A stretch of 32,000 nt of DNA from Acaryochloris marina MBIC11017 (GTDB taxonomy: Bacteria; Cyanobacteriota; Cyanobacteriia; Thermosynechococcales; Thermosynechococcaceae): positions 60,001 to 92,000 of the forward strand of contig NC_009927.1 of assembly GCF_000018105.1 (NCBI RefSeq), given 5' to 3'. Positions 3,061 to 27,850 of the stretch are shown here, piece after piece; position 1 is the stretch's first letter, and every line of letters begins with the position of its first letter. The notes below the pieces were generated by a model. It searched no databases. It was not told the DNA's origin and saw nothing but the letters and a program-made list of their open reading frames with translations. A program made the translations under genes and the position numbers.

Positions 3061-3762
3061 CTAGTCAGCCAATAGTATTGAATCTGAACCAACGTCAGAA
3101 TTACCATCTGAAACCATCGATCCATCAAACCTTTGCTGAATTCCATTTCCTTGGCTACTCTCATCCTTCCACTCCTGCGGTATATCTCTAGCATCGGCCC
3201 AACTACCAATTGATGACCAATTGGTTTCAGGATCAAAACGGATATTGAGAAGGTCTGATCTCTCAAAATTAGCTCCTTCAAGATCCGCACCAGAAAGATC
3301 CGCTTCATAGAGATTAGCCTCACATAGGTAGACTTCACAAAGGCTAGCTTGACTGAGGTCTGTCTCACTAAGATTGGCTTTGTAAAGATAGGCTCTACAA
3401 AGGTTAGCACCACGGAGATCGGCTTTATAGAGGTTGACGTTATAGAGATTGGCTTTCCAGAGACTAGCCCTACACAAGTCAGCCTCAATGAGGTTGGCCT
3501 CTTTCAGGTTCGCTTTACTTAAAATGGCACCACGAAGATTGGCTTTCCAGAGGCTGGCTTCACAAAGGCTGGCCTGATTGAGATTAGCACCCGTGAGATT
3601 AGCCCCGATCATGATCGCTTTATGAAGGTTAGCCCCATGTAGATCCATCCCAGTCAGACTGGCCTTGCTGAGGTTAATCGATACCTTGAGATTTTCCTTT
3701 CTCCACTCGTTCCAAACTTCAACACCCTGACTCAGCAAGGCTATCTGTTCCTGATTAGCCAT
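3061..3762 (-). CDS. pentapeptide repeat protein
   Basis: Long run of A(D/N)Lxx pentapeptides (ANLHKAIMIGANLTGANLNQASLCEASLWKANLRGAIL...). The N-terminus MANQEQIALLSQGVEVWNEWR is typical of cyanobacterial members. Confidence 0.9.
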   Translation of the reverse strand: MANQEQIALLSQGVEVWNEWRKENLKVSINLSKASLTGMDLHGANLHKAIMIGANLTGANLNQASLCEASLWKANLRGAILSKANLKEANLIEADLCRASLWKANLYNVNLYKADLRGANLCRAYLYKANLSETDLSQASLCEVYLCEANLYEADLSGADLEGANFERSDLLNIRFDPETNWSSIGSWADARDIPQEWKDESSQGNGIQQRFDGSMVSDGNSDVGSDSILLAD

Positions 3763-3810
3763 CGTTAGTTCTCAAGAATGCTCTGAAGTCAATTCTCTTA
3801 TCCCATGCAT

Positions 3811-3825
3811 GATAGCAATGCTATC
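3811..3825. promoter_or_regulatory. perfect 7-1-7 palindrome GATAGCAaTGCTATC upstream of the pentapeptide-repeat gene
   Basis: Read directly from the sequence. It lies 49 nt upstream of the ATG at 3762. Possible operator; function unknown. Confidence 0.2.
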
Positions 3826-3992
3826 GGGAAATTTTGGAAAGCAAACATGAGATTGAAATCCCCATATTCCCAGTAACCCAGAAACATCAAAGAAAAGGTC
3901 TTGGAATAACTTGAGACAACTCATCTAAGCTACTGGGGGAATTCGTTAGACTAGGGAGTAAGGCTTGCAAACTGCAATCCTCACACCACACT

Positions 3993-4024
3993 AAACTGAC
4001 AGTTACCCATAACACTGTCAGTTT
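3993..4024. other. perfect 11-bp hairpin (AAACTGACAGT / ACTGTCAGTTT) with a 10-nt loop
   Basis: Inverted repeat read directly. It is followed by TT on the plus strand (TTTTT including the stem), so it is terminator-like, but no plus-strand gene lies upstream. Confidence 0.4.
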
Positions 4025-4150
4025 TTCATAGCCAACACCCCTCACCAGGTCCAAAACAGAAAGACCCCCTTAAAGTACGGGGGACTCCAGGGGGTAGACT
4101 GTTAAGAACTTTTGGTTCATAGATACAGGAGGTTCTGAGGCCCCCTTCAG

Positions 4151-9283: not shown

Positions 9284-9647
9284 ATGGCAACCAGCACCCC
9301 TCCACCTATCTATCCTGATGAAGCACTTGGGGCTAGCGGCCTTCTTGGCATCTGGCAGTTGCTCAAGTTTTCTCGAAAACCGATTGAATTTTCGGTCAAA
9401 TCTGCACAAGAATATGGAGACGCGGCAAGAATTAGCATTGGTTCGATTCACGTCTATATTTTTCATCATCCTGACCTGATTTCCGAAGTCCTCAGCAAAA
9501 AAAACGAACACTTTATTAAGGACATTAGCTATCGTTCTCTAGCAGGATTCCTTGGTAATGGACTTCTACTTATTGATGGAGAACATTGGCAGAAACATCG
9601 ACGCCTCATGCAACCTGCTTTCACTCAAGATAAGGTATCTACCTATA
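9284..9647 (+). pseudogene. cytochrome P450, N-terminal part (interrupted by an IS)
   Basis: The ORF reads ...HPDLISEVLSKKNEHFIKD...LIDGEHWQKHRRLMQPAFTQDKVSTY and then runs into the IS inverted repeat. Confidence 0.85.
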
Positions 9648-10581
9648 GAACTCATTTGAGATCTTTTGCCTAATACGCGAAACTGCTAGAAGCGTTCTAT
9701 TTCAATTGTTATGGCCTACTCAAGCAGTCTGACTGATGCCGAATGGGAAATCCTCAAACCACTGTTACCAGAATTTCTACCCCCCAAGAAAAAGACAAGG
9801 CCTCTGATCTGGAGTTACAGAGAGCTGATTGATGGGATGCTTTATCGACTCAAAAATGGGTGCAACTGGGAGGACCTGCCCAAAGACTTTCCCCCCTCCT
9901 CAACGGTCTTTTGGCACTACAACGTGTGGCGCAAAGCAGGCTCGATTGAGACATTGATGACGCTGCTGCATGGACAGGTTCGTGAGCAGGTAAAAAAAAG
10001 TCCAAATGGACAACGTTGATAATGGCAGACTCGCAAGCGGTGAAGAACACTTGCAATGCGAGGGTGGAGTCGAAAGGGTTCTGTTTCTACAAAGCCACCA
10101 ATGGAATCAAGCGCCATCTAGCTGTTGATACCCTTGGCTTTCCATTCTTTACCCTTTGCACCCCCGCAAATGTCTCAGACGATATGGGCTTACTGATGAT
10201 GTTGACCCTCAATATTGAGTACTTCAAAGCCAAGCCGGTCAATATCCCTAAAATCACTTTTTTGTTGGACAACGGCTATCACGTGGACACCTTGACTCAG
10301 AAGCTTGGGGCAATCTATCCAGCCATCATGAGAAAGATCAGATTTGAGCTATCGCCGAAACCCTCAAAAGCAGAAAAAGCGGCTCAAGGGAAAACGGGCT
10401 TTGTTCCGGTTGCAACCCGGTGGGTCATTGAGCGTTCCAACGCTTGGATGGAGCGCTGTAAGAGCCTGACTAAGAACTTTGAACGAACGCTTGTGAATGC
10501 AAAAGCGCAAATGGATTTGTGCTTCGTCAGGCTTATGCTGAAGAGACTTGCGGCTAATTCTTAAAGATCTCAAATGGGTTC
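9648..10581 (+). mobile_element. IS5-family insertion sequence (IS427/IS1031-like), 934 bp
   Basis: 19-bp terminal inverted repeats GAACTCATTTGAGATCTTT (9648-9666) and AAAGATCTCAAATGGGTTC (10563-10581), matching at 18/19. A TATA direct repeat flanks both ends (9644-9647 and 10582-10585). The element has a two-ORF transposase. Confidence 0.9.
9711..10564 (+). CDS. IS5-family transposase, two ORFs joined by a -1 frameshift in an A8 run
   Basis: OrfA (9711..10019) has the LTDAEWEILKPLLP HTH-type N-terminus. OrfB (10016..10564) carries the DDE-domain region (ADSQAVKN...KRHLAVDTLG...RWVIERSNAWM). The A8 tract at 9992-9999 lets the -1 frame read ..QVKKKSKWTTLIMADSQ... Confidence 0.85.
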
Positions 10582-10585
10582 TATA

Positions 10586-11577
10586 TTGCAACGGCTATAG
10601 AAGAGACTAACAAAATGCTCGGCACTTGGAAGACTGGAGAAATCCATGATATCCATCAAGATATGAGCCAGCTTACTGTGAAGGTGATTACCAAAGTACT
10701 CTTTGGCGTTGATATCACACAAATGGCCTTAGAGATTGGGGATGCTCTAGAATCAATCTTGCTTCAGTACTATCACAAGGCACAGACTAGCTTCTTGCTA
10801 CCATCTTGGGTGCCTACACCGGGCAATCTTAGAGCTAATCGGGCTATAGAATACCTTAATAAGCTGGTCATCGACATCATTGAACAGCGTCGAGAATCTC
10901 CACAAGATGATTTGTTATCTAGTCTGCTCTTAGCTCAGGATGAAGATGGCAGTCAGCTTTCTATGAAAGAGCTGCGTGATGAGGTGATGACACTCTTACT
11001 CGCAGGGCATGAAACCACTGCCACGGCACTGACTTGGACATTAATGTTGTTGGCTCAAAATCCAGAGGTTGCACAAAAGCTAGCCTCAGAAACTCAATCG
11101 GTCCTGGAGGGAAGGGCACCAGGCATCACAGACCTACCGCGCTTGCCATACACAGAGATGGTTCTCAAAGAGTCGATGCGTCTGTATCCACCAGCTTGGG
11201 CATTGAGTCGAGAAGTAGCCCAAGATTGTATGATTGGCCCTTATTTCCTGAAAAGAGGAACATCTGTTTTTTTTAGTCAATGGGTTGTTCATCGAGATAC
11301 CCGGTTTTTTGACAATCCAGAACAGTTTTTACCAGAGCGGTGGCAGGATAATCTAGAGCTAAATCTGCCACGCTGTGCATATTTCCCCTTTGGAGCAGGA
11401 CCCAGGGGGTGCATTGGCCAAGCTTTTTCCATAATGGAGGCGACGCTAATACTGGCGATGATTTTAAAGCAAAATTACTTCAAGCTTGTCCCGGACCAGG
11501 CTATTGAGCTGTTACCGTCAATAACATTGCGTCCAAAATATGGAATTAAGATGATTTTGGAGTCTTCCAACCTCTAA
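10586..11577 (+). pseudogene. cytochrome P450, C-terminal part
   Basis: Contains the I-helix LLLAGHETTA, EXXR (ESMR) and the heme-binding loop FPFGAGPRGCIGQAF. Joining 9647 to 10586 restores one 1356-nt frame (..QDKVSTYIATAIEETNKMLGTW..). Confidence 0.9.
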
Positions 11578-12881: not shown

Positions 12882-13290
12882 ACGAGGTAGCGATAATTTT
12901 TTGTCTAAGTTTTAGTGAAAATAAGATATGGGTCGAATATTTTATGTTGGCGCAGTCCGATTTTCCGATTTAGTAGAGATCAAAGAGGGCTAAGACAAAT
13001 CTTTCAAACTGCTCTAGGGTCAAGTAGGTGTGAATCCATTGATTAGACTAGGTTTGAGATATCTGCACTCCTAATCGAACGTCAAACTAAAGGCTGGAGC
13101 CATTTTAGTCTGCGTCGGTGTGATGTTTGAGTCTATCACTGGCTAATCACCTGGTCTGTCTACATGGAAGTGTCTGAAGATTTTCAAAGGGGTGAGGTTG
13201 TTGAACCGCTTCCAAAATGACATTAGATCCTCCAGCAAAGCTGACTCATAATTTTACGTTTTGGTCAGTTTTTGGTAATCACAATTTAGA

Positions 13291-13307
13291 ATGATAATCA
13301 TTATCAT
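13291..13307. promoter_or_regulatory. Fur-family (Zur/Fur-type) operator, box A
   Basis: Perfect 8-1-8 palindrome ATGATAATcATTATCAT. In context, tAGAATGATAATCATTATC matches the classical 19-bp Fur box GATAATGATAATCATTATC at 17/19. It overlaps a TAGAAT -10-like hexamer (13287-13292) upstream of the COG0523 gene. Confidence 0.75.
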
Positions 13308-13484
13308 AATGAAAAACCTCATCCCTCTCATTATTTGTGAACCATCGGATTGATATTGCCATTATTGGGGCAGGTCCCCAGGCGCTCACCCTCTTTACTC
13401 AGCAATTGGAGGACACCATTGACTAACTCAACTGCAAGCGTTCAAACATCCCAATCCCTCGACATCAAGCTGCCCAAAAAAGGC

Positions 13485-14522
13485 ATGCCCGTTACGATCA
13501 TTACGGGGTTTCTAGGAAGTGGCAAAACCACACTCCTCAACCATATTCTCAATACCAGCCAAGACCTGAAGGTCGCCGTACTGGTCAATGAGTTTGGCGA
13601 TATTGATATTGACAGTCAGCTGTTGACCACCATTGATCAAGATATGGTCCAGCTAACCAATGGCTGCATCTGCTGCACGATCAATGATGACCTGGTGGAG
13701 GCGGTCTATTCCGTCCTAGAGCGAGAGGAAAAAATTGATCATATGGTCATCGAAACCACGGGGGTGGCAGATCCGCTACCGATTATTCTCACCTTCGTTG
13801 GTTCTCAACTGAGAGACTTAACGACTTTAGATTCCGTTATTACCTTGGTGGATTCAGAAACCTTTACCCCGGAATGTTTTCAGAGTGAGGCGGCCCTGAA
13901 TCAAATTACCTTTGGCGATATTGTCGTTCTCAACAAAACCGACCTAGCCGCTGATCAAAAGGTGGAAGAACTAGAGCAGTGGATTCGTGAGCAAAAATGG
14001 GGTGCGAGGCTGTTGCGATCTCAACAGGGCCAAGTCCCTCTACCCCTGATTCTGGATACTACCCTCTTTGATCCCAAAGCATATGAAGAGGAAGTCAAAG
14101 CCTTTGCGGAGCAGGGGACTCATCATGATGAACATGACCATCACCATCATGATGAACATGACCACCACCACGGCGAACATGACCATCATCACCATGGCGA
14201 TCACGATCATCACCATCATCATTCTGAGCACCTCACCATAGATGGATTTTCGTCAATGGCCTTTGAAAGCGATCGGCCCTTTGTTCTAGAAAAAATGCAG
14301 GCTTTCATTACCGATCAGCTACCAGAAGATGTCTTTCGAGCTAAGGGTTTTATGTGGTTTGAGAAAAATACATCCCGCTATATTTTTCAGCTCAGTGGCA
14401 AGCGCTATACGATGGACAGCGATCAGTGGCCTGATACCCCAAAAAATCAGCTGGTCTTTATTGGCCGCAATATTGACACAGCTCAGCTAAAACAACTGCT
14501 AACGGATTGCTTGGCCCCCTAA
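13485..14522 (+). CDS. COG0523 (CobW/ZigA/YeiR-type) metallochaperone GTPase with a His-rich insert
   Basis: Walker A GFLGSGKTT, metal motif GCICC, ETTGVADP and NKTDL. The His-rich segment is HHDEHDHHHHDEHDHHHGEHDHHHHGDHDHHHHHSEH. The start is uncertain: ATG 13485 (MPVTIITG), or TTG at 13419 or 13350. Confidence 0.9.
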   Translation: MPVTIITGFLGSGKTTLLNHILNTSQDLKVAVLVNEFGDIDIDSQLLTTIDQDMVQLTNGCICCTINDDLVEAVYSVLEREEKIDHMVIETTGVADPLPIILTFVGSQLRDLTTLDSVITLVDSETFTPECFQSEAALNQITFGDIVVLNKTDLAADQKVEELEQWIREQKWGARLLRSQQGQVPLPLILDTTLFDPKAYEEEVKAFAEQGTHHDEHDHHHHDEHDHHHGEHDHHHHGDHDHHHHHSEHLTIDGFSSMAFESDRPFVLEKMQAFITDQLPEDVFRAKGFMWFEKNTSRYIFQLSGKRYTMDSDQWPDTPKNQLVFIGRNIDTAQLKQLLTDCLAP

Positions 14523-14752: not shown

Positions 14753-15148
14753 ATGGTTACACTCAAAGACGCACGCCGGATCATTGCAGCTGCTGAGAAA
14801 AAGGCAGAGGAAATTGGCCAACCGATGAATATTGCAGTCGCAGACAGTGGTGGCAATTTAGTTTCTCATGTAAGGATGGATGGAGCCTGGATTGGTAGTA
14901 TTGACATCTCAATTAAAAAGGCCTATACATCGCGGGCTTTCGACATCTCCACCAAAGACTTAGCTGAACATAGCCAATCTGGGGGACAATTTTTTGGAAT
15001 ACATGCTTCCAACGGGGGACAAATCATGATCTTCGCTGGAGGGATACCTCTGATGCAAGATGGTGAAGTTGTTGGCGCTATAGGTGTCAGTGGTGGCTCA
15101 GGAGAGCAAGATCATGCTGTTGCAGAGGCTGGTGCAGACGCCTTTTAA
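14753..15148 (+). CDS. GlcG/HbpS-like (DUF336) heme/tetrapyrrole-binding protein
   Basis: 131 aa. The sequence ..IAVADSGGNLVSHVRMDGAWIGSIDISIKKAYTSRAF....GGIPL..DGEVVGAIGVSGGSGEQDHAVAEAG is the family signature. Confidence 0.85.
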   Translation: MVTLKDARRIIAAAEKKAEEIGQPMNIAVADSGGNLVSHVRMDGAWIGSIDISIKKAYTSRAFDISTKDLAEHSQSGGQFFGIHASNGGQIMIFAGGIPLMQDGEVVGAIGVSGGSGEQDHAVAEAGADAF

Positions 15149-15492: not shown

Positions 15493-17346
15493 TCAGGCAG
15501 CAAAGGTAAAGTCATCGGCATTGAGAGACGTTGTGCCCATCAGTCGAGCAATAGTTGTTCCACCGATCCCAATTTCGGTATCGTCTCCAGTGACTGTTAG
15601 GGCAAGACCGTCAAATTTTAGATCTCCTTGCCCAGAGATACCAATTATGTCAAGGCCCTGCTCAAAGTCAACGATGGTGTTGGTGCCCTCCGGCAATTCA
15701 CCGTTAACAATCCAGAAGGCATCAGAGCCAGCACCTCCAGACAGCTTGTTGTCTCCGCCAATTTCTGTGAAGAAGCTATCGTCTCCGTCTCCACCAAGAG
15801 CGCGGCCATTGCTTCCCAGGAAGAACTGATCATGTCCTGCCCCACCGGAGAGTCTGTATCTTGAAGCTTCAGTTGCCTCAAATATGTCGTCTCCAGCACC
15901 ACCAAAGGCTCTATCGCGGTCTGCCACAAACGTAATGTCATCACCACTGCCGAGGCTGATGCGATTATCGCCAGCTGTGCTTCCAGCGATCGCTGTATCA
16001 ACGTCGTCATTTCCTGCCCCAGCAAAAACCATGTCACTAACACCATCAAAGCCAGGTGTAATAGATGCAAACAGATCATCGGCTTCGCTACTGCCTGCCA
16101 CAATATTGGAGTCTGTAGGAATTAGTTCCGTATCCGGTAGCGGGACTGTTTCATTTTGGGGAGAAATCAAAGCATAAGTCCCTGCAATATCGCTTGGAGC
16201 TTGGATGAAGGTCAGATCGGGATCTTCAAGTTGGGCAATGACATCGCCGGATAGTGTTGAGATTTGTAAGAGTGTGAAGGTTTCTCCGCCAAATTCCACT
16301 TCAATATTCTCGAATTGGTAATTTTCAATTGACTTTGCCATGATGAGTTGATCTTCTTTCGGATCAAAATCGCCTATTAAGGCATAATCTTGATCACCTT
16401 GCCCGACATAAAAATCAGTTCCATCATTTCCTAGCAAAATGCGGTTAACACCAAAGGCACCATGGAAGTGGTCATAGTCACCACTTCCAGTTGTTGCAGT
16501 GGTGATCACTTGGGTGGAAGGATCATAGGAAGTGATCGGCATTCCTGCGATGACCGCATTTCCCAAGGCATAGAAGAAAGAGTCACGACCCACTACACCA
16601 TTGAAAAACGTGAGTCGCTCTTCGTTAATTCCTGCCGCGAGAAAATGATCCCAGCCAGAATTATAGTCACCTGCATCCAGCAAAGCTTCTACATCAGGAT
16701 TGGCTGCCAGATATGCTGTTTCATTGAAATAGGGTTTACTACGGCTCGCATAGAAAGAATTTTCAGGTGCAAACAGTAGAATTCCGTTACTGGTAAATAA
16801 GCCATCTGGAATGAGCTGGGGAACATCTTCGATAATGCCTATCAGATCTCCATTTCTAGAGATATGGACACTGTTGTCGATGGTCTCAAAATCGTAGTCT
16901 TCAGGATTGCCAGCCAGATAAATAGCATCCTCACTGAAGGGGTCAAAAAAGCGAATTAAGGCGTAGTCGCGATCGCCTTCTCCCAAATAAAAATCTTGCG
17001 GGTTCTCTTCTGCATTATCCCCCAGGTAAAAAATGTTGCGTCCCGGTGAACCTAGTAGCGTGTCAAACTCCCCCACACCAAATGACTCAACTTGAGCATT
17101 GACCAATCTTCTTCCTGATTTAATGGATTGTACAGGCACCCCAAATATCGAGGATGTTTGTCCAGAGCTATGGATAATGTCGTCACCTGTCGTGCCGTTG
17201 AAAATTACACCATTACGCTGTTGAAATTGTCCAATCTGCACGTATTCTTCTAGTCCAGAAGCATATAGACCTTGGGCTACTGCTTCAGCAACTTGTGGGT
17301 TTTGATCTAGATAGATTGCCTCATTTAAAAAAGAATTGCTTGTCAT
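15493..17346 (-). CDS. RTX-type (hemolysin-type Ca-binding repeat) secreted protein with a duplicated N-terminal domain
   Basis: C-terminal GGxGxD nonapeptides (GAGNDDV, GSGDDIT, GGAGDDIF, GGAGHDQF, GGDGDDSF, GGAGSDAF). No signal peptide. There are two ~190-aa internal repeats (FLNEAIYLDQNPQVAEAV... and YFNETAYLAANPDVEALL...; ..GEGDRDYALIRFFDP.. and ..GQGDQDYALIGDFDP..). Confidence 0.9.
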   Translation of the reverse strand: MTSNSFLNEAIYLDQNPQVAEAVAQGLYASGLEEYVQIGQFQQRNGVIFNGTTGDDIIHSSGQTSSIFGVPVQSIKSGRRLVNAQVESFGVGEFDTLLGSPGRNIFYLGDNAEENPQDFYLGEGDRDYALIRFFDPFSEDAIYLAGNPEDYDFETIDNSVHISRNGDLIGIIEDVPQLIPDGLFTSNGILLFAPENSFYASRSKPYFNETAYLAANPDVEALLDAGDYNSGWDHFLAAGINEERLTFFNGVVGRDSFFYALGNAVIAGMPITSYDPSTQVITTATTGSGDYDHFHGAFGVNRILLGNDGTDFYVGQGDQDYALIGDFDPKEDQLIMAKSIENYQFENIEVEFGGETFTLLQISTLSGDVIAQLEDPDLTFIQAPSDIAGTYALISPQNETVPLPDTELIPTDSNIVAGSSEADDLFASITPGFDGVSDMVFAGAGNDDVDTAIAGSTAGDNRISLGSGDDITFVADRDRAFGGAGDDIFEATEASRYRLSGGAGHDQFFLGSNGRALGGDGDDSFFTEIGGDNKLSGGAGSDAFWIVNGELPEGTNTIVDFEQGLDIIGISGQGDLKFDGLALTVTGDDTEIGIGGTTIARLMGTTSLNADDFTFAA

Positions 17347-17376: not shown

Positions 17377-17399
17377 ATGAGAATGATTATCATTCTCAT
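17377..17399. promoter_or_regulatory. Fur-family operator, box B
   Basis: Perfect 11-1-11 palindrome ATGAGAATGATtATCATTCTCAT. The core GAGAATGATTATCATTCTC matches the 19-bp Fur box at 16/19. It lies 31 nt upstream of the RTX-like gene ATG (17346). Confidence 0.7.
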
Positions 17400-17844: not shown

Positions 17845-18888
17845 TTAAGAACTAGTTCCCACTAAGGTCTTTGCAGATTCTTCTGTTGGCAGAGGCCCAA
17901 GCTTGACTCCATCAGGATAGTATTCCCAACCATCTCTGATCTGGATGTCTTTATCCCAGGGTAACTGGTACTTTCCTTCCGCCAAGTCCTTTACCCAAGT
18001 CAGGTAATTTTCACGCTCTCCACCAGGTTTACCCACGTAGCCTCGGCAACCAACATTGAAGACATTGTTTTCAAGAGCCCAGTTTTTGCGGGCCTCATCT
18101 ACCAGTCTTGGGAATAATTCAGCCGTCACAATTTCCCAAGGATTACGATGGCCCTGCTGAAGTACATTGCCATCGTAGTTGCAAACAGTTCCTTCACCAA
18201 AGTAGTAAAACACACCGTCATAACCCGCCAAGTTGACGGAGATGGTGTACATCAAGTTTTGCCAAGCATTAGTTTGATTGGTCAAGATCCACTGATCATT
18301 GACCTGAGTTGAATATCCTGAGATGCGAATATAAACGTTGCACCCTTTATAGGCAGCTTCTCGCGCTAATTCAGGGAACATCCCATCATGACAAATACAA
18401 ACTGCTAGTTTAGAGCCTTTCGGTCCATCACATACGGGCATCCCATAATTACCTGGATACCAGGGCTCAATCGGTACCCAAGGCTGCAATTTGCGATAGT
18501 GAAGGGCAATTTCTCCTTGATCATTAATGATAATTGCAGTGTTGAATGGGGGAAGTCCAGGTACATCATTTTTCTCCATAAGAGAAAAGACTCCCCAAAC
18601 TTTGTTGCGCACACAAGCTTCTTTGAACTGATCAATTTCTGGACTATCTACTGTCAAAAGCATTTCGTCATATGTCCAGATTTTTGTGTTAAGTCCTTGA
18701 GTGGAGTACTCTGGCATCACAATCAGATCCAAGCCAGGATAACCTGCTTTAGTGTTGTCAACGGCTTTACAAATTTGCTTGACCTGAGTCTGAATATCTT
18801 CGGGGCCAGTGATAACTGGAACCGGATATTGAATCATGGCCACTAGCAGAGACTCGGACCATGAACTGACACTTCCTGTACTACCCAT
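17845..18888 (-). CDS. amiF: formamidase (nitrilase-superfamily aliphatic amidase, AmiF type)
   Basis: Long stretches match Helicobacter pylori AmiF as I recall it ([78 protein letters not shown]). The start is placed at MGSTGSV (ATG 18888, AGGAGGA 8 nt upstream). The 27 codons upstream in the track ORF look spurious. Confidence 0.93.
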
Positions 18889-18970
18889 ATCGAAGTCCTC
18901 CTGAGGACAGTGGTATATGACCAGCATCATATGGGGGCAGATATGTGAGTTATGTATATGCCCACACAAA

Positions 18971-18991
18971 TGAGAATGATTATTATTCCCA
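18971..18991. promoter_or_regulatory. Fur-family operator, box C (imperfect)
   Basis: TGAGAATGATtATTATTCCCA, with half-sites complementary at 8/10. It shares aTGAGAATGATTAT with box B. It lies 83 nt upstream of the amiF ATG, in the divergent region shared with the gene at 19194. Confidence 0.55.
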
Positions 18992-19538: not shown

Positions 19539-19943
19539 TCATGGTTTCTTTGTGGCAGCAATGGCCAGTTTCGCACCTTCAATTTCGCGAATGCGATCCA
19601 TCACCGTCACGACGCGGCCATGACTCACTTGGTCATCTGCATGAATCACCACCACTACCTTGTCAGCTGAATCAGTTAGCTCCTTCACTTCTGCCTCAAG
19701 GACGTTGAGCTGAATGGGTTCTCGATTGAGAGCTAAATCCCCCTGCGCATCAATCGTGACCGTCACCTTGGTCGATAGCTGTGGTTTTACTGTCTTTGCC
19801 TGGGGCAAATTAACAGGTAAGGCATCACTGCGGTTGAGGAATAACGTGGCAATGATAAAAAAGGACAGAATTGCAAAAATAACATCAATCATCGGCACAA
19901 TATTGATTTGAGCCGATGGACTGGGATCATCGGGTAAGCGCAT
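19539..19943 (-). CDS. exbD: ExbD/TolR family biopolymer transport protein
   Basis: 134 aa; the INIVPMIDVIFAILSFFII signature transmembrane segment is present. It overlaps the upstream exbB by 17 nt. Confidence 0.9.
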   Translation of the reverse strand: MRLPDDPSPSAQINIVPMIDVIFAILSFFIIATLFLNRSDALPVNLPQAKTVKPQLSTKVTVTIDAQGDLALNREPIQLNVLEAEVKELTDSADKVVVVIHADDQVSHGRVVTVMDRIREIEGAKLAIAATKKP

Positions 19944-20580
19944 GATTCACCCTGCCTCTTTCATAGCGGTGACGATAAAGCAACTCCAACTGCCCCCCAT
20001 GCTCTTGAATAAAGGCCAACTGGCGCTGATATAAACTGCGAAACATATTGGCAAAAATCAGGGTTGAAATGGCGACAATCAATCCCGCAGCCGTTGAAAT
20101 TAGGGCGGTACTTATTCCCCCGGTGACTTCTGCTGATTCACTACCGCCGATATTGCCTACATCTAGGGAGGAGAAGGAGTTGATCAGGCCCAATACCGTC
20201 CCTAATAGGCCGAGTAAAGGGGAAATACTAATGATGGTGTCAAACACCGTCGTAAATCGTTTCAATGTCGGCAATTCAGCTTGAGCTTCACTTTCTAATG
20301 CCAATCGGAATTCTTCCGGTGTCGGGTCTTCTAAGGACAAGGCAGCTAAGAATATCCGGGCAATCGGAAATCTTGCTTGCTCTTGGAGATACCTCAAGGC
20401 GTCATAGACATTATCTTGGCGATAAAGCTGCAGTGCCTGTTTGACGATCCGCAACTGGTTGCGATTCACCCTCGTCCAAAAGATGAGGCGTTCAAAAATC
20501 AGTGCGATCGCAATTAACGAAAAAACCATGAGCGGGAGCATCACCACTCCTCCCGCAATAATCACTTGGCCAAACTGCAT
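19927..20580 (-). CDS. exbB: MotA/TolQ/ExbB proton-channel protein
   Basis: 217 aa with three transmembrane segments. The conserved ..ISPLLGLLGTVLGLI..F........GGISTALISTAAGLIVA.. region is present. Confidence 0.9.
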   Translation of the reverse strand: MQFGQVIIAGGVVMLPLMVFSLIAIALIFERLIFWTRVNRNQLRIVKQALQLYRQDNVYDALRYLQEQARFPIARIFLAALSLEDPTPEEFRLALESEAQAELPTLKRFTTVFDTIISISPLLGLLGTVLGLINSFSSLDVGNIGGSESAEVTGGISTALISTAAGLIVAISTLIFANMFRSLYQRQLAFIQEHGGQLELLYRHRYERGRVNHALTR

Positions 20581-20795: not shown

Positions 20796-21878
20796 TTAAT
20801 ACAAGGATTGCTGCCGCTTTAACATCAGCCAAATCAGGATGGGGGCACCCAGCACAGCCATCACTGCATTGAGGGGTAGAACGGACTGACTCCCTGGAAG
20901 TTGAGAGATCGCATCGGCAATCAAAGCTAAGATGGCACCGAGCAGAGCCACAGCTGGGACTAGGATGCGATGATCGACGGTTCGAAATAAACTCCGGCAC
21001 AGATGCGGGACAGCGACTCCCACAAATGCAATAGGTCCACAAAAGGCCGTAACCGATCCTGATAATAAGGAAGAACTGAAGATCAAAAGGCATCGGGTTC
21101 GATTGACAGACAGCCCTATACTTTGAGCTTGCGCTTCCCCCAGTAACAGCAAATTTAAAGCTTTATGCAACAGTTGTGATCCCCCAAGTCCTAAGGCAAT
21201 GACAGGCAACAACAAGGGCATCTGTTGCCAAGTCACATTCGAAAAACTACCAAAGGTCCAGTTGAGGTATGCCTGGGTCTGAGTAAGCAAACTGAAATGC
21301 AAAAGGATAGTCACTAGAGCAGTGGTCATATACCCAAACATGAGGCCAAAAATAAGCAGTGCTAAAGCACTACGCACCCGTTGAGCCACTAGTAGCACCA
21401 CCCCCATGGACATCCCTGCGCCCAAACTGGCCGCCCCAATAATGCTGATCTGAACAAAACCATTGCCAGCGTTAGCTGTCCCTCTAGTTAAAACCACGAG
21501 AGCGGCCCCCAAACTAGCGCCAGCATTAATGCCTAGCAAGGAAGGCCCTGCAAGTGGATTGCGGAATAATGCCTGTAGCTGTAATCCGCTCGTTGCTAAG
21601 GCAGAACCCGCTGCGATCGCAGTTATCGTTCTAGGCAATCGAAACTGGAGAATAATCTGTTGCCAGGTCGGATTCGTGGCCTGACCTCCGAACAACACAG
21701 TGATCACGTCTGATAGGGGAATCGAGACAGATCCAAAAGCCAGGCTGACTAGCACCCCCATTAACAAGACACTACTTAGAACCCCTAAACCAGCGTAACG
21801 GCTGATTTGCGGCCTTCCATGTAGTGGGTCGGGAAGATGTCTATCGTTCCCATCAGTCATCGCTGAGGACATATCCAT
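20796..21878 (-). CDS. FecCD/BtuC-family ABC transporter permease
   Basis: 360 aa. RLPRTITAIAAGSALATSGLQLQALFRNPLAGPSLLGINAGASLGAAL is the family signature. About 9-10 hydrophobic segments. Confidence 0.93.
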   Translation of the reverse strand: MDMSSAMTDGNDRHLPDPLHGRPQISRYAGLGVLSSVLLMGVLVSLAFGSVSIPLSDVITVLFGGQATNPTWQQIILQFRLPRTITAIAAGSALATSGLQLQALFRNPLAGPSLLGINAGASLGAALVVLTRGTANAGNGFVQISIIGAASLGAGMSMGVVLLVAQRVRSALALLIFGLMFGYMTTALVTILLHFSLLTQTQAYLNWTFGSFSNVTWQQMPLLLPVIALGLGGSQLLHKALNLLLLGEAQAQSIGLSVNRTRCLLIFSSSLLSGSVTAFCGPIAFVGVAVPHLCRSLFRTVDHRILVPAVALLGAILALIADAISQLPGSQSVLPLNAVMAVLGAPILIWLMLKRQQSLY

Positions 21879-21881
21879 TTC

Positions 21882-22661
21882 TCACTGCTGTACATATTCA
21901 ACCCGTTGTACCCAAGTGCGATGAGTGCCATTAGGATCAAGAGATAACAGCCGAAACCCAGGCAGATGAGTATGATCAGTTGGTACAGGTGGATTCACCT
22001 GTAAACAAGTGGAAGGACAACCGTAGAAGTAAATCGGTGAGGGACGTTGGCTGAAAACATGCTGATACTGGAAGTCCAAGTGGATATGTCCAAACAGCAC
22101 CACTTTCACTTGTGGGAAGCTCTCCAACAGGGTGAGCAATGCATCAGCATTTTGCACCTGCATTTGATCCAGCCAGTCGATACCGATTGCCACAGGATGA
22201 TGGTGTAGGGCAATCACCGTAGGTTTATGAGGATGTTGAGTCAAGACTGATTGCAACTGTTGCAAGGCGCTGACTGATAAATACCCTTCACCAAACTGAG
22301 CAGAAGGCAACACTGAGTTGAGTGAAATAAGCAGCCAGCTCCCCAGATGAATTGCCTGTGGCCCATAGAGTTGAGGAGACTGCAGTTCCCGATGCATGGC
22401 CTCAACTTGATCATGGTTACCAGGCAGCCAGTAAGCTGGCATCTTCAAGGGTAAGATTGCTCTCATTAAATGCTGATAAGCAACGACACTCCCTTGATCG
22501 GCTAAATCCCCCGTTAAGAGAATTCCATCCAGTTGATCTCGATTCACTTGCTGCAGAACAGCCTGTAAGGATTGCCAAGGATTAGTCCCTCGTAGCAGTG
22601 CCGTTGTATCTGCCAACAGATGGGTATCACTGATTTGTGCAAGCGTAATGGGGGCCGTCAT
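21882..22661 (-). CDS. metallophosphoesterase (CpdA/Icc-like class III phosphodiesterase fold)
   Basis: Motifs DTHL, GDLADQG, GNHD, HHHP and GHIH occur in the canonical order. Its ATG overlaps the stop of the binding-protein gene (ATGA), and its stop is 3 nt from the permease ATG. Confidence 0.88.
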   Translation of the reverse strand: MTAPITLAQISDTHLLADTTALLRGTNPWQSLQAVLQQVNRDQLDGILLTGDLADQGSVVAYQHLMRAILPLKMPAYWLPGNHDQVEAMHRELQSPQLYGPQAIHLGSWLLISLNSVLPSAQFGEGYLSVSALQQLQSVLTQHPHKPTVIALHHHPVAIGIDWLDQMQVQNADALLTLLESFPQVKVVLFGHIHLDFQYQHVFSQRPSPIYFYGCPSTCLQVNPPVPTDHTHLPGFRLLSLDPNGTHRTWVQRVEYVQQ

Positions 22662-23920
22662 GAGTCTAATTTTTGGTAATAAATCAGTTGATGATTAGGC
22701 AATAACTCTGGGTGGAAAATCTTGATCAAGTCTGCTAGTACCTTATGGGGGTTTACAACCCCGCTTTCCCAATAATCGTTGCCGCCAGCAGCATTGACCC
22801 GAGCCGTATTATTGAAGACGCGATCAGCTTGGACTGCAGACAGTTGACCGTAGCGAGCATCGGTTGAGATCGCATCTTGTCTCGATCTCCAATCTTGGCT
22901 GACATTAACCCAGAACTCAGCCTTCACTGCTCGATTAAACACTGCTTCAAAGTCCAGGGGTAGACTCCCTCTTGCATCTGACTCTGACCAGAGATAGTTG
23001 GCACCTGCATCCTGCAAGAGCTGGGACACATAACTTTTGCCTCCCGGCATATACCAGGTGCCATTGTGACTAAACCCCGTAAACACCGTGGGACGTTGGG
23101 CCACAGATTGAGCCAACTGCACCATCGATTGATACTCTTGGGCTATATCGGAAAAGACCTGTTCTGCCTGCGCTTCTTGATTAAAAAATAGGGCCGTATA
23201 CTTTAACCACTCTGCTTGTCCCAGGGGGGATTCCTCCATATATTCCCCCACCAGGGCAACGGGTAGACCTGCCTTGACCAGACGAGGATGACTATCTGTG
23301 TCTGGGTTACCCGTTCCATAGGTCATCACCAAATCCGGTGCTGTCACCAGCAGCCGCTCCACATCTAAGGTATTGCCAGAATTAAACTCAACCAGTTCAC
23401 CCCGATCAATTTTGGCCCGCACCTTTAGACTATTCACTTGCTTAAACTGGCTGACACCGACAAGGGTATCTAGCTGACCTAACAGTTCCAAGTGAGGTAA
23501 ATAGGTCGTGGATAGCACGACTAGACTGCTAATCGGTACTTCCACCATCGGCAGATCTTCAAAGCCTGGGGGTTTGGGTGTTCCACACTGCACTAGCAGA
23601 TACTGAAAGGTTTGGTTTGCCCCTTTCCAGGGATTCTGAACGGTAACTATTTTGTAGTGACGGTGATACTCTACCGAGAAACCCACGGCATAGTCAGACT
23701 GGACCTTATTGGGGAAATAATCTTGAGTAGGATCGTACGCAACAGGACATTGATCGGCAGAAGTTGGTGAAGAATCAGATTTCAGGGCTGATGGTGATTG
23801 GGTTGGCTGGCAACCAACTCCCCCTAGGAATCCAACGACAGCCAATCCCGCCGTTACTTTCAGCAGTCGAATCCAGCCAGAAGTAGCGTAGTCACTGATG
23901 GATGCTTTGGGTTCCTTCAT
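22658..23920 (-). CDS. ABC transporter periplasmic substrate-binding protein (siderophore/heme/B12 class)
   Basis: The region ..VVLSTTYLPHLELLGQLDTLVGVS......VERLLVTAPDLVMTYG... is typical of FhuD/BtuF-class binding proteins. The start is set at MKEPKAS (23920), giving a signal peptide ending GGVGC and avoiding a 92-nt overlap with the upstream gene. Confidence 0.88.
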   Translation of the reverse strand: MKEPKASISDYATSGWIRLLKVTAGLAVVGFLGGVGCQPTQSPSALKSDSSPTSADQCPVAYDPTQDYFPNKVQSDYAVGFSVEYHRHYKIVTVQNPWKGANQTFQYLLVQCGTPKPPGFEDLPMVEVPISSLVVLSTTYLPHLELLGQLDTLVGVSQFKQVNSLKVRAKIDRGELVEFNSGNTLDVERLLVTAPDLVMTYGTGNPDTDSHPRLVKAGLPVALVGEYMEESPLGQAEWLKYTALFFNQEAQAEQVFSDIAQEYQSMVQLAQSVAQRPTVFTGFSHNGTWYMPGGKSYVSQLLQDAGANYLWSESDARGSLPLDFEAVFNRAVKAEFWVNVSQDWRSRQDAISTDARYGQLSAVQADRVFNNTARVNAAGGNDYWESGVVNPHKVLADLIKIFHPELLPNHQLIYYQKLDS

Positions 23921-23936
23921 CCTGTCGTCGCTAGGG

Positions 23937-24824
23937 CTATACAGAGGCTTGAGTTTTGATCGGGGGATAGACATGGGCTTGAATAGGGCGGCCTTGAGCG
24001 ACATGCTCCTGAACAATTCGGTGGGCAATCTCAGGAGTCACGCGGGTATACCAAGTGCGATCCCCGGAATAAAACACCACTGGCCCAGCAGCACAAACTT
24101 CTAAACAGCCAGAGGTTCTCACGGCAACCTCCAAACCTGACTGCTGTACAGCCGTTTGTAATGCCTCAATAATGGGCTGCACATCCTGAGAGGGATAGCA
24201 GCGGCTGGATCGACAGACTGACAGATAGGGTCGCTTGAGTGGATTCTCAGTATAGGGAATGGGACGAGTTCCCAATACATAAATATCGCGCAACGTTTCA
24301 TAGAGGCTCAGTTTATCCAGTTGGGGTGTCCCTTCCGGTAGCAAGTTCTCGTCGGCATCCACAAAGGGATTGGGTAAAAAGAGATTCATCATCTTTTCTC
24401 CAGCTCCATTCCAGAACTGAATCCCCCAACTTCGTGCTTGGCCGCGATCATTGAAGCGGCGGTAAAACGAGGCTCGCTGTACCTGTCGTTTTCGTCTCAA
24501 CGCTGGAGGGGTTTTGCCGAGGGGACCACCCTGATGTTCTTCTAGGCATAGATGCAAATGCCATCCTGCCGTCACAACCGTCAGATAGCCATCGTACAAA
24601 ATACAAGTTTTAGGGGCTTGGGTAAATTCCAGCTCAAGAACGCTCCCCTCTACTACGTGACCAATCTGGGTTTGTTGCCAGCACTCTTGAAACAGGGTGT
24701 AAAGCAGAGGCCCCAGGACCTCAATGGTGCAAGGAAAATCTTCATACTCGATCTGTCCTCCAGTCGCTAAGGGGTCAACGGTACGGTAGTTTAAAGGGAC
24801 GACTTGACGTGAAAATTCAGACAT
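23937..24824 (-). CDS. two-domain protein: ChuX/HutX-like N-terminal domain fused to a thioredoxin-like [2Fe-2S] ferredoxin domain
   Basis: C-terminal ~90 aa: YLSVCRSSRC...GCLEVCAAGPVVFYSGDRTWYTRVTPEIAHRIVQEHV, the CxxxxC...CxxxC pattern of thioredoxin-like 2Fe-2S ferredoxins. N-terminal ~190 aa: SVLELEFTQAPK..DGYLTVVTAGWHLHLCLEE...SWGIQFWNGAGEKMMNLFLP resembles E. coli ChuX as I recall it (VILEFSGELP..GYFNL..GHIKAE...SILFFNKEGSAMLKIFLG). The N-terminal assignment needs a profile search. Confidence 0.85.
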   Translation of the reverse strand: MSEFSRQVVPLNYRTVDPLATGGQIEYEDFPCTIEVLGPLLYTLFQECWQQTQIGHVVEGSVLELEFTQAPKTCILYDGYLTVVTAGWHLHLCLEEHQGGPLGKTPPALRRKRQVQRASFYRRFNDRGQARSWGIQFWNGAGEKMMNLFLPNPFVDADENLLPEGTPQLDKLSLYETLRDIYVLGTRPIPYTENPLKRPYLSVCRSSRCYPSQDVQPIIEALQTAVQQSGLEVAVRTSGCLEVCAAGPVVFYSGDRTWYTRVTPEIAHRIVQEHVAQGRPIQAHVYPPIKTQASV

Positions 24825-24848: not shown

Positions 24849-26915
24849 CTAAAAAGTGGCACTCACACCCAGGCGAAAACTCCGACCCACTGCCGGAAAA
24901 CCTGGAAATTGTTCATAATGCTGATCTAACAAATTGTCTAAACTGCCCGTGAAGGCAAAGCTATCCCCAATCGGGAAACGAAGCTTGAGATCGAGCGTGG
25001 TATAGCCCGGCAAGGATTCTGTATTCGTGTTGTTGACAAAGTAGGAACTGAGATAGCGGACAATGGCGGCGATATAGACACCTTTTGCATTCTCATAGGC
25101 CAAACCAACATTGAGGCTATCCGCGCCGCGAAAGCTGAGTTCATTACCTGTAATCGTAGGGTCGCCATCCTCAATAATTTCAGGCTCATTCAAGGTGTAG
25201 TTGGCAAAGGCATACAGGTTTTTGAGCAGTCGCACATTCAAATCCGCCTCTAAACCCAGCGTCCGCACCTTGCCGATATTTTCATAGGTACTAGGGGCAC
25301 CAAACTGAAAGTTAATCAAGTTAGAGATGGTATTGGCAAAGAAGGTGAGGCGTAACAAGCCATTCTCCCCCAGGGATTGGTCAATGCCAATATCAAAACT
25401 ATCGCCCCGTTCTGGCTCTAAATCAGGGTTACCCACCACATTAAAGGCAGCTAAGCCTTCTAGGTTGACGATTTGAGGTGCTCGAAAACTCCTGGCATAA
25501 TTCGCCCGTAAAACCGTGGAATCTCCTATGGCAAGACGAGCCCCCACACTAGGAGAGGTAAAGGAACCATTAGCTAAACTATTGAAATCTTGGCGCAAAC
25601 CAAAATTGAGATTGAATTTTGGCGTAATGTTGACGTCATAACGGGCAAACAAGGCCCCTTGATCAATGCCGCCATCATAGTTAACATCTGTGGTTCCCAG
25701 ACCATAGCTAAAAGTGGTGTTCCGAGACTGGGTATTGCGGTAGTCAAATCCATAGGTCAGGGTTTGGTTTTTGGCGACTTTCCAGTTGTGCTGGACTTGT
25801 GCCCCAATAGAGCGGCGATCAACATCATCTCGTGTGCCAAAGGCTGCAGGGTCTGGATTATCAAAGTTGGAGTCCAGCAGATCCGCAAAAATCCGGCTGG
25901 TGAGTTGGGAGTTGCCCGCCTGGTCCAGTTGGGCTTGCCAAGTCAGATCTAGGAAGAGTTCTTCCGTGGTTTGCCGGGCTAAAGGGGTCAGGCTATTAAA
26001 TTGGCCAATACTGTCGGGAATTGGCACACCCCCAGCCGAGCCAAAATCTTTGTTCAGATAGAGGGCGCTGAAGGTTACCTGGTTGCGATCGCTGAGTTTT
26101 CCTTCCAGCTTCAGATTCAGATTGTTGTACAACACGTCGGCGTTGTTCCGATCTGCTTGCAATCCAATCCGGTTAATCTCAAACGGAAAGTCATTCGTCG
26201 CCTGGGTGCGGGTATAGCCAACGCTCCACCCCAAATCCCCACTGCGCCCCCGAGCCTGCACGGCTTGCTCATTGAGCCCAAAACTTCCAGCCGCAGCTCT
26301 GAGGGTCACCTCCGGTTTTTCGTCAGCAGGAGCACGAGTAATGATATTAATCACGCCCCCTAAGGCATCGGAGCCATAGAGGGTCGATCCTCCACCTGGC
26401 AAGAGTTCAATCCGCTCTATATTGTCCGTCGTGAAATTCGATAGATCAAATCCACCCATAAACCCCACGTCATTAATGGGGCGACCATCTAGCAAAATCA
26501 AAACTTGAGCTGTGTTACTCCCCCGAATAAACTGGCTACTCAGAGCTCCTAGTTGTCCCCCAGCTGTGCCGTCCCTCAGAATTCCTGGGAGATATTTCAA
26601 CGCTTCTTGGACCGTTCTCGCGCCTTGGGCCTCAATTTGCTCGCGATTAATCACATACACCGGGCGAGACGAATCACGCACCGTGCCTTCTCGCCGAAAG
26701 GGGGCATAAACGGGCTGATCTAAGATTTCTCCCGTGACTGTAATTTCTACTTCTTCGTCCTCCACTATCGAAGAAGGTAGGGCCTCCTCATCGGTAGGGG
26801 GATTCGCTTGTGCCAGGCTAGCTCTTGAAGTGTAGCTAAACCAGGCAGTTAAACTGAGTCCAAAAACGAATATGAGCTTCCCAATGACAGGAAACCCAAC
26901 TTTTACACCTTTCAT
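24849..26915 (-). CDS. TonB-dependent outer-membrane receptor (BtuB-like by context)
   Basis: 688 aa with a signal peptide and a TonB-box-like EITVTG. Plug-domain motifs are present (IRGSNTAQVLILLDGRPIND, LYGSDALGGVINIITR), and the beta-barrel ends in the terminal F (..LGVSATF). A cobalamin riboswitch precedes it. Confidence 0.95.
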   Translation of the reverse strand: MKGVKVGFPVIGKLIFVFGLSLTAWFSYTSRASLAQANPPTDEEALPSSIVEDEEVEITVTGEILDQPVYAPFRREGTVRDSSRPVYVINREQIEAQGARTVQEALKYLPGILRDGTAGGQLGALSSQFIRGSNTAQVLILLDGRPINDVGFMGGFDLSNFTTDNIERIELLPGGGSTLYGSDALGGVINIITRAPADEKPEVTLRAAAGSFGLNEQAVQARGRSGDLGWSVGYTRTQATNDFPFEINRIGLQADRNNADVLYNNLNLKLEGKLSDRNQVTFSALYLNKDFGSAGGVPIPDSIGQFNSLTPLARQTTEELFLDLTWQAQLDQAGNSQLTSRIFADLLDSNFDNPDPAAFGTRDDVDRRSIGAQVQHNWKVAKNQTLTYGFDYRNTQSRNTTFSYGLGTTDVNYDGGIDQGALFARYDVNITPKFNLNFGLRQDFNSLANGSFTSPSVGARLAIGDSTVLRANYARSFRAPQIVNLEGLAAFNVVGNPDLEPERGDSFDIGIDQSLGENGLLRLTFFANTISNLINFQFGAPSTYENIGKVRTLGLEADLNVRLLKNLYAFANYTLNEPEIIEDGDPTITGNELSFRGADSLNVGLAYENAKGVYIAAIVRYLSSYFVNNTNTESLPGYTTLDLKLRFPIGDSFAFTGSLDNLLDQHYEQFPGFPAVGRSFRLGVSATF

Positions 26916-26944
26916 CCATACCTCGCAGATGTTGTAAGTGAGTA

Positions 26945-27065
26945 ATAACTCGGCGGGCGTTCTGACTCTGAGGACAAAGCCTCATCACAGTTGCGGGACA
27001 GCGCCGGATTTTCACCGGACTTTCCCCGTTTCCTCTAACGGCTGTTCTCCGTTAGAACCGAATCT
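26945..27065 (-). promoter_or_regulatory. cobalamin (B12) riboswitch
   Basis: The minus strand reads GGAAACGGGGAAAGTCCGGTGAAAATCCGGCGCTGTCCCGCAACTGTGATGAGG...CAGAGTCAGAACGCCCGCCGAG. This carries the conserved GGGAA..GGTGAAAATCC..GCTGTCCCGCAACTGT core and a B12-box-like AGTCAGAAcGCCcGCC. It ends about 30 nt before the receptor ATG. Confidence 0.85.
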
Positions 27066-27187
27066 ATAAAATTGTTTCTGCACCTTATCACAGGAATGAG
27101 ATGCATTAGAGAGAAGCGGAAGGCACATAGGAATTTGCCAATATCTTGGAATAGATTGAACCGCTTGAATAAGTTTTTATACTGAGA

Positions 27188-27204
27188 ATGATAATCATTA
27201 TTAT
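27188..27204. promoter_or_regulatory. Fur-family operator, box D
   Basis: ATGATAATcATTATTAT, with half-sites at 7/8. In context, GAGAATGATAATCATTATT matches the 19-bp Fur box at 17/19. It sits just upstream (minus sense) of a TATAAA -10-like hexamer (27176-27181) and about 120 nt upstream of the riboswitch. Confidence 0.65.
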
Positions 27205-27214: not shown

Positions 27215-27850
27215 AAACCAGCCCCCAACACCACCAATCGTCGATTGTCCGCAGTCAAGTCAATGGTATGGATGGTCCATCGCCTTGATATGTGCGATTG
27301 GATGTTGGCTGTAGTGGATGGACGGACGGTGAAGCTCTACCGGGATACTCGGGGGATTTCGTCATCGCATGCTGATATACATCAATCAGTTTCCCCTGGC
27401 TGGGTCTCGGAACTATGCGATGACGACACTGTTCTGGGAGGCTGGATTGCGACGGTCTGAGCTGGTGAACTGCGATGTCTGCCATTTTGACCTGGAGCAG
27501 AAACGGTTGTCCATTTTAGGGAAGGGACGGAATGAATGAGAGTGGATTGATCTGACGGTGAGCGGCGTTCAGGGGATTTTCAGGTGGTTGGAGCTACGAG
27601 GGGAATGTGCCCCTACTGATCCATTATTTATATCGTTGGATCGGGTGATAGGGAGTCGTAGTTATCGGTGACATCGTTATGTCGAATAGTCCGGGCTTCG
27701 GCTAAGAAGATGGGGGTAAGTGAAGATTTTGGCCCCCATAATAGTGGCACAACCACATATTTAGAAATGACGGGTGGGGATTTGAGAGGTACCCAGGCAT
27801 ACTCTCGGCATGCCAAGCTCAAGTGGATCAACGAACCATTCAGGTTCCTG
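27215..27850 (+). pseudogene. tyrosine recombinase/integrase remnant (N-terminally truncated, several frame disruptions)
   Basis: Pieces lie in three frames: NRRLSAVKSMV...YRDTRG; then AMTTLFWEAGLRRSELVNCDVCHFDLEQKRLSILGKGRNE* (box I GLRRSE...GKG); then KMGVSEDFGPHNSGTTTYLEMTGGDLRGTQAYSRHAKL (box II, with the HxxR arginine lost). Confidence 0.7.

Follow-up and report, generated by a model that had tools for sequence, protein, structure and literature searches.

How do a metal-responsive operator and a vitamin B12 sensor divide the control of a single operon when both stand on the same leader? The question is raised by a 32,000-nucleotide stretch of the Acaryochloris marina MBIC11017 genome (contig NC_009927.1; hereafter the window), in which an operon for a TonB-dependent receptor of the BtuB2 type is preceded by a palindromic box, which we call box D, and by a cobalamin riboswitch (Table 1). 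An initial annotation proposed that the operon would be expressed only when a metal, zinc or iron, is limiting and B12 is low. Both elements are indeed present on one leader ahead of the receptor operon, and the distance from the box to the riboswitch, which had been put at about 110 nucleotides, measures 106. The word 'only', however, presumes a sole promoter, and a second promoter-like element is widely conserved next to riboswitches of this type and is present in the window as well. We favour instead a model with tandem promoters, P1 and P2, in which B12 gates the transcripts of both and zinc limitation adds transcription from the first, and we would give this model slightly better than an even chance of being right. 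It draws on sequence elements, their conservation and their enrichment, from which promoter activity, binding by the zinc regulator Zur and the action of the riboswitch are predicted.

Comparison was made with 80 homologous loci, retrieved with an alignment of 17 receptors and limited to one genome per species, of which 73 contain a homologous riboswitch when searched by nhmmer with the riboswitch of the window. Two of these loci, L001 and L020, are the closest relatives of the window. The box reads AATAATAATGATTATCATTCTCAGTATAAAA on the minus strand and comprises two overlapping Zur-type sites of the 7-1-7 form; on the operon strand, site 1 (27189-27203) is TAATAATGATTATCA, with one mismatch to TGATAATNATTATCA, and site 2 (27183-27197) is TGATTATCATTCTCA, with two. 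The initial annotation had placed the box over the spacer and -35 side of a -10-like TATAAA hexamer, but this hexamer is ATAATA in L001 and AACAGG in L020, and we reject it as the -10 element. Because TATAAA is not conserved in these relatives, we reassign the -10 to TATCAT, which together with its -35-like partner forms P1 (TTGCAA-17-TATCAT). A promoter scan found P1 in the window, L001 and L020 alike, and from 27260 to the riboswitch the operon strand of the window has no other match to the sigma-70 consensus. The Zur sites span its spacer and its -10, and box D overlaps a promoter that is both predicted and conserved.

The second element was found by aligning the 130 nucleotides upstream of each homologous riboswitch. 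In 57 of 67 homologous riboswitches the pattern TGnTAnnnT, an extended -10, ends 8-36 nucleotides ahead of the first aptamer stem, the distances clustering sharply at 10-19 nucleotides. Its representative in the window, P2, has a predicted start at about 27075, to be compared with an Rfam aptamer match that begins at 27077; the hexamer agrees with the consensus at three of six positions and is preceded by TG, a strength equalled by 24 other instances. In L001 the equivalent is TGATAGGAT. The extended -10 is most likely the ancestral promoter of the riboswitch, to judge from its conservation.

The riboswitch is a full-length match to Rfam family RF00174 (all 189 model positions; 58.3 bits, gathering score 31.5; E=3.4e-12), and this is the only Rfam family in the entire window. 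It sits in the 5' leader of the receptor gene, with 20 nucleotides between the end of the aptamer and the start codon. The core CTGCGAGG, with a start codon a few nucleotides later, is found in 67 of 71 homologous riboswitches, and the pair is kept whether the next gene is a receptor, a small open reading frame (ORF), a DUF1636 operon or a metE remnant. Since the Shine-Dalgarno sequence and the start codon are a fixed part of the RNA, the output of these riboswitches would be control of translation initiation.

In proposing how the parts work together, we envisage zinc-loaded Zur at box D, which covers the spacer, the -10 and the start region of P1, a promoter of sigma-70 type, and would there block RNA polymerase; zinc limitation would lift the block and allow strong transcription from P1. 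Transcripts from P2 (TGATAAGGT) would begin at the aptamer's 5' edge, and as P2 lies about 100 nucleotides downstream of box D, Zur bound there would not occlude it. Transcripts from both promoters would pass through the riboswitch, and for this reason B12 could veto expression from either: the B12-bound riboswitch would sequester the ribosome-binding site, with premature termination or decay probably following. The zinc signal would be effective only at low B12, an AND relation for the zinc input, while at low B12 alone P2 would sustain a basal, zinc-independent expression, still gated by B12. Such zinc-independent expression seems likely because the conserved P2 is present in the window in a form no weaker than that of the 24 other loci.

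Several points weigh against this model. P1 and P2 are predictions from consensus and conservation only, and the hexamer of P2 in the window, TAAGGT, is weak, its TG being lost in L020. Folding the leader by minimum free energy brought out no switching helices (z = -1.4 and -1.0). The serial order, Zur site before riboswitch, is unambiguous only in the window, L001 and L020, which are closely related genomes, and is ambiguous in L004, L006 and L081. As to the regulator, there is no zur gene in the window, whose scanned ORFs gave no match to the Fur family, and the FurA consensus of Anabaena has a core similar to one half of box D, ATTCTCA.

The state of P2 bears most directly on the strict AND gate of the initial annotation, in which the Zur-controlled P1 would be the sole promoter and the operon would be silent except where zinc limitation and low B12 coincide. 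It is favoured by the standing of P1 as the sole sigma-70 consensus match in the operon-strand stretch from 27260 to the riboswitch, and the weak hexamers of this clade (TAAGGT or TAGGAT), with the missing TG in L020, fit a decay of P2 after P1 was gained; judged by sequence, P2 may be inactive in the clade of the window, which would restore the strict gate. Yet cyanobacterial promoters often have no more than a TAnnnT -10, the position of the extended -10 is conserved in the great majority of homologous riboswitches, and the version in the window is the equal of two dozen others. Moreover, B12 uptake that is unusable at replete zinc would be unusual, and the btuB2 operon of Anabaena is strongly induced by cobalt starvation alone and repressed by cobalamin (PMC10878165). 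On balance we regard the strict gate as unlikely and retain the tandem promoters.

The initial annotation left the metal as zinc or iron, and the comparison with known sites speaks for zinc. Zur sites have been described as 7-1-7 palindromes (PMC3323870), and the experimentally bound sites of Anabaena PCC 7120, which show the same motif, include TGATAATCATTATCA (alr3242), TGATAATCATTATCG (all3515) and TGATAATAATAATCA (alr4028-4029) (PMC10957091 Table S3). One site of box D agrees with the Anabaena Zur consensus in 13 positions out of 14, and at the orthologous positions L001 and L020 have perfect sites. The window as a whole holds six 7-1-7 matches in four boxes where 0.30 would be expected (100 dinucleotide shuffles, none of which reached six), and the 13-mer core of the site has 12 matches against 1.5 expected. 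One of the four, box A (13292-13306), is a perfect copy lying 44 nucleotides upstream of a COG0523 gene (13350-14522, plus strand), and COG0523 genes are hallmark targets of Zur. Because box D fits the Zur site and the COG0523 gene carries one, we assign box D to Zur and its metal to zinc, and not to Fur; binding is predicted from these matches, and some cross-talk with Fur is conceivable.

Were box D instead an iron box, or one common to Fur and Zur, the second input would be iron. The ATTCTCA half-site is present in the Anabaena FurA consensus AAATAAATTCTCAATAAAT (as quoted in PMC4005646), TonB-dependent receptors and ExbBD are among typical Fur targets, and cross-talk between FurA and Zur has been reported in Anabaena. 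However, a manual alignment on ATTCTCA matches about 11 of the 19 positions of the FurA consensus, and the overlap is confined to that core, against the near-complete agreement with the Zur site in the window and the perfect agreement in both relatives; a Zur-type motif also precedes the COG0523 gene within the window, and Zur controls just two receptors in Anabaena, one of them Alr4028-29, the orthologue of the receptor in the window, which is over-represented in the exoproteome of the zur mutant (PMC10957091). We reject Fur for the poor match to the FurA consensus, and consider an iron input highly improbable.

Zur sites recur at related operons. Of 79 loci, 24 have a Zur site with no more than one mismatch in the regulatory region, taken to begin 300 nucleotides before the riboswitch and to end at the receptor start; the density of such sites elsewhere in the loci predicts 0.73, and dinucleotide shuffles give 0.025. 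Many of the 24 belong to related Nostocales and for that reason are not independent events; in a neighbour-joining tree they fall into at least two deep clades. Three architectures can be distinguished. In the first, the Zur site is followed by the riboswitch and then the receptor, and it is seen in the window and its two relatives, with the three ambiguous loci as possible further members. In the second, the riboswitch precedes a DUF1636 gene, which is followed by the Zur site and then the receptor; it comprises about 16 loci with strong sites, including L065, which has exactly the sites published for alr4028-29, and L003 and L005, which represent non-heterocystous lineages. The third, 42 loci, has riboswitch and receptor without a Zur site. 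The usual order across loci places the Zur site after the riboswitch, and it comes before only in the clade of the window, L001 and L020. In L065 a promoter is predicted that overlaps the Zur site (TTGTAA-16-GATAAT, with TG upstream); a promoter scan at the Zur sites of L070 and L003 gave no match.

Other candidates for the serial order were dropped or set aside. L006 does not count as an independent case, its Zur site lying 22 nucleotides upstream of a divergent sufE-COG0523 operon. L002 and L004 (Coleofasciculus) have only a one-mismatch site, which in L002 is parted from the riboswitch by an insertion of about 390 nucleotides, and two-mismatch sites upstream of the riboswitch in L028, L029, L049 and L058 are possible chance matches. 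A scan of metagenomes for a Zur site and a riboswitch core separated by 151-211 nucleotides recovered one contig, L081, which adds little support as a clear serial case, the site being common with a divergent flavin adenine dinucleotide (FAD) oxidoreductase gene. The locus of L006 (Leptolyngbya sp. AN02str, 2490-4001) consists, in order, of the shared Zur site, a first riboswitch, a decayed N-terminal fragment of metE, a second riboswitch and the receptor.

It could also be asked whether box D belongs to the operon at all, and the initial annotation had named an adjacent decayed integrase fragment as its possible owner. This alternative fails. Colinearity with L001 sets in at 27219 and with L020 at 27223, close before the -35 of P1; further upstream the window aligns with neither, and the flanks are unrelated: the integrase fragment on the opposite strand in the window, a partial duplicate in L001 and an unrelated gene in L020. 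The fragment is located exactly at the end of synteny. As homology opens just upstream of P1 and the sequence beyond differs in each genome, box D is an element of the operon rather than of the integrase remnant. Alignment with L001 and L020 further shows the box to be conserved above its surroundings, and there is no conserved divergent gene that it could serve instead. The notion that box D is a relic, or serves an upstream or divergent target, and that the operon is under B12 alone from P2, could appeal to L006 and L081, where similarly placed Zur sites face divergent genes that may be their real targets, and to the insertion in L002 that splits a Zur-like site from the riboswitch, but in the window, L001 and L020 nothing conserved adjoins the box except the riboswitch operon, the box outconserves its surroundings on a conserved promoter, and Zur sites are strongly enriched at btuB2 loci. 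We give this notion hardly any credence.

The partial tandem duplicate of L001 (3822-4145; 85% identity) lies just upstream of the Zur-box promoter and consists of a riboswitch, which has a TGCTAGCAT -10 of its own, and about 145 nucleotides from the beginning of the receptor gene. It may record the origin of the serial arrangement.

The closest known system is the orthologous operon of Anabaena, alr4027-btuB2-alr4030-btuFCD. Orthology with the operon of the window rests on the receptor and on synteny (DUF7676 ferredoxin, BtuF-like and FecCD genes); the receptor is about 56% identical to its Nostocales homologues, and the genes downstream match. Graf et al. 2024 (PMC10878165) described a cobalamin riboswitch upstream of alr4027, and found uptake of 57Co-cobalamin to be reduced in mutants. 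Both controls have been shown for the orthologous operon, in separate papers, and the cobalamin riboswitch is joined there by Zur 7-1-7 sites, but the order differs: Anabaena-type loci run riboswitch, DUF1636 gene, Zur site, receptor, while the window has its Zur site ahead of the riboswitch, lacks the DUF1636 gene and uses the receptor's own start codon as that of the riboswitch. A promoter at the Anabaena-type Zur site, such as the one predicted in L065, would bypass the riboswitch and give an OR-like logic. Because the Zur site comes after the first, riboswitch-controlled gene, zinc limitation should bypass the riboswitch in these loci, and such a bypass fits both the excess of Alr4028-29 in the zur-mutant exoproteome and the induction of btuB2 by cobalt starvation alone. 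The Zur regulon group has treated the Anabaena operon as a zinc-supply receptor, and another group as a riboswitch-controlled cobalamin importer; the cobalamin paper (PMC10878165) makes no mention of Zur, the Zur paper (PMC10957091) makes none of cobalamin or a riboswitch, and our literature search found no publication that joins the two controls of this operon.

Protein operators and leader riboswitches in series have precedents elsewhere, in Escherichia coli mntP (MntR and Fur with the yybP-ykoY manganese riboswitch) and in the pur and xpt genes of Bacillus subtilis (PurR with a purine riboswitch). The paired sensors of these systems read the same or closely related signals, whereas the inputs in the window are zinc and a cobalt cofactor. 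A btuB-cpdA-btuC-btuF operon with a cobalamin riboswitch was reportedly described in Synechococcus sp. PCC 7002 by Perez et al. in 2016. That operon, as it is cited in PMC10878165, resembles the one in the window in gene content, including a cpdA-like metallophosphoesterase, and in having the riboswitch in its leader. An RNA-seq study of a zur mutant of PCC 7002 lists only two Zur clusters with seven genes, and a search of it by term turned up neither btuB nor cobalamin. In E. coli, btuB likewise has a cobalamin riboswitch in front of an outer-membrane B12 receptor, acting, in the account given by PMC10878165, on ribosome binding with secondary effects at the mRNA level; it differs in that we found no description of a metalloregulator operator there, and the two receptors are only distant relatives: in the window the NCBIfam models for BtuB score below their cutoffs. 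A review of 2024 states that the extent to which riboswitches act as logic gates with protein partners is not known.

All the types of part were known already, as was an orthologous operon with both controls; what is new is the serial order on one leader, the dependence of the wiring on lineage and the link between two published sets of results. Both controls recur at the btuB2 operon across cyanobacteria, in the window and in the 80 loci, with the order of the elements varying by lineage. From this we draw a wider reading, tentatively and as something a little short of an even chance: zinc limitation would be a conserved cue for cyanobacterial corrinoid uptake, linked with the B12 riboswitch through at least two kinds of wiring, such that B12 vetoes the zinc response in the Acaryochloris type and zinc bypasses B12 in the Nostocales and some of the Leptolyngbya type. 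The serial arrangement accordingly predicts that B12 vetoes zinc derepression, and the bypass arrangement predicts no such veto. If the reading is true, the BtuB2 system is part of a zinc-sparing response or carries a second, zinc-related substrate, and the Zur and cobalamin results from Anabaena, which are unconnected in the literature we found, are joined.

Four reasons for coupling zinc with B12 may be suggested. One is the sparing of zinc-dependent enzymes; the initial annotation suggested, as a possible rationale, a switch to B12-dependent isozymes when a metal-dependent alternative such as the zinc enzyme MetE, the B12-independent methionine synthase, fails. Neither metE nor metH is present in the window, and the sole metE seen is the decayed fragment behind a riboswitch in L006; MetH also binds zinc. 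Another is corrinoid salvage when zinc-dependent tetrapyrrole synthesis is limited, and the Zur regulon of Anabaena includes a hemB paralogue. Thirdly, zinc and cobalt might interact or substitute for one another, and cyanobacterial Zur binds Co(II) tightly in vitro. Lastly, the receptor could have a second, zinc-related substrate or partner, as the authors of the Zur study propose.

Table 1. Positions in the window of the leader elements, the operon genes and other features discussed.
Feature	Position	Strand	Remarks
Decayed tyrosine-recombinase (integrase) fragment	27300..27640	+	In-frame stops; Pfam Phage_integrase E=2.3e-5, 24.7 bits, below cutoff
-35-like TTGCAA of distal promoter P1	27211..27216	-	Consensus scan; TTGTAA in L001, TTGCAA in L020
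Box D, two overlapping Zur-type 7-1-7 sites	27183..27203	.	Match to Zur palindrome TGATAAT-N-ATTATCA
-10-like TATCAT of P1, within box D	27188..27193	-	Invariant in window, L001 and L020; predicted start ~27181
TATAAA hexamer, -10 proposed by the initial annotation	27176..27181	-	2 nt downstream of box D
Riboswitch-proximal extended -10-like P2, TGaTAAGGT (TGATAAGGT)	27082..27090	-	Conservation; predicted start ~27075
Cobalamin riboswitch aptamer	26935..27077	-	Rfam RF00174
Expression platform ATCTGCGAGGTATGGATG	26913..26930	-	Shine-Dalgarno GAGG 26924-26921 and start codon ATG 26915-26913
Hairpin and T-run (terminator-like)	26863..26898	-	Codons 6-18 of receptor gene
TonB-dependent receptor, btuB2-type, 688 amino acids	24849..26915	-	Pfam Plug and TonB_dep_Rec
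DUF7676 and thioredoxin-like 2Fe-2S ferredoxin protein (alr4030-like)	23937..24824	-	Directly downstream of receptor in most related loci
Periplasmic binding protein, BtuF-like	22658..24028	-	Pfam Peripla_BP_2; weak NCBIfam BtuF match
Metallophosphoesterase (cpdA-like)	21882..22661	-	
FecCD-family permease (BtuC-like)	20796..21878	-	
ExbB and ExbD	19539..20580	-	ExbB 19927-20580, ExbD 19539-19943
Split cytochrome P450	9284..11577	+	N-terminal 9284-9673; DUF4096 and DDE transposase ORFs 9711-10564; C-terminal 10615-11577

The operon itself is predicted to serve corrinoid uptake, with cobalamin transport assigned by analogy with the BtuB2 and BtuD of Anabaena. The best NCBIfam match of the receptor is a TonB-dependent B12 receptor, under its cutoff; its homologues are named vitamin B12 transporter by the Joint Genome Institute (JGI), and it is syntenic with btuB2 of Anabaena. 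By receptor, the nearest genome is an Acaryochloris metagenome-assembled genome with 96% identity. In most of the 80 loci the next gene after the receptor is of the DUF7676 type. The true start of the BtuF-like gene is probably downstream of 24028, since the ORF as called overlaps the preceding gene. No match to the DUF1636 gene was found in the window between 19000 and 29000; in L020 this gene is located downstream.

Beyond the start codon, a terminator-like hairpin with a T-run occupies the first part of the receptor gene. It has equivalents at a matching offset, with different stem sequences, in L001 (4499-4534), L006 (about 4036-4067), L011, L012 and L032, and lies in the first receptor codons wherever the riboswitch directly precedes the receptor, at a constant offset of 21-27 nucleotides from the Shine-Dalgarno sequence. 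Overall it is present in 7 of 75 riboswitch instances, compared with 2.6% of control windows. Its position and form suggest that it may be a translation-sensitive terminator or attenuator within the output of the riboswitch, which would end untranslated transcripts. Most loci have a short unannotated ORF or spacer of 270-340 nucleotides, opened by the Shine-Dalgarno sequence and ATG of the riboswitch, ahead of the receptor or DUF1636 gene (3394-3893 in L026 and 2913-3195 in L070, both from Nostoc); in L081 a predicted membrane protein of 118 amino acids takes up this position.

The remaining Zur-type boxes of the window lie outside the corrinoid operon. At 13283-13310, the perfect site of box A has a second site overlapping it before the COG0523 GTPase gene, whose product is ZigA/CobW-like with ZigA as its best NCBIfam match, and a gene for an HbpS-like protein (14753-15148) comes after it. 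Box B (17378-17398) is a near-perfect 9-1-9 palindrome, GAGAATGATAATCATTCTC, 36 nucleotides upstream of a gene for a protein of 617 amino acids (15493-17346, minus strand). This protein has no match in Pfam or NCBIfam, although by eye its C-terminus contains GGxGxD-type, RTX-like repeats, and it may be secreted and controlled by Zur. Box C (18971-18985) is directly upstream of a formamidase gene (17845-18969, minus strand; NCBIfam NF009803 at 602 bits, cutoff 406). An enzyme of this kind is an unusual candidate for membership of a Zur regulon. Elsewhere in the window, a cytochrome P450 gene appears to have been split by an insertion of the IS4/IS5 family.

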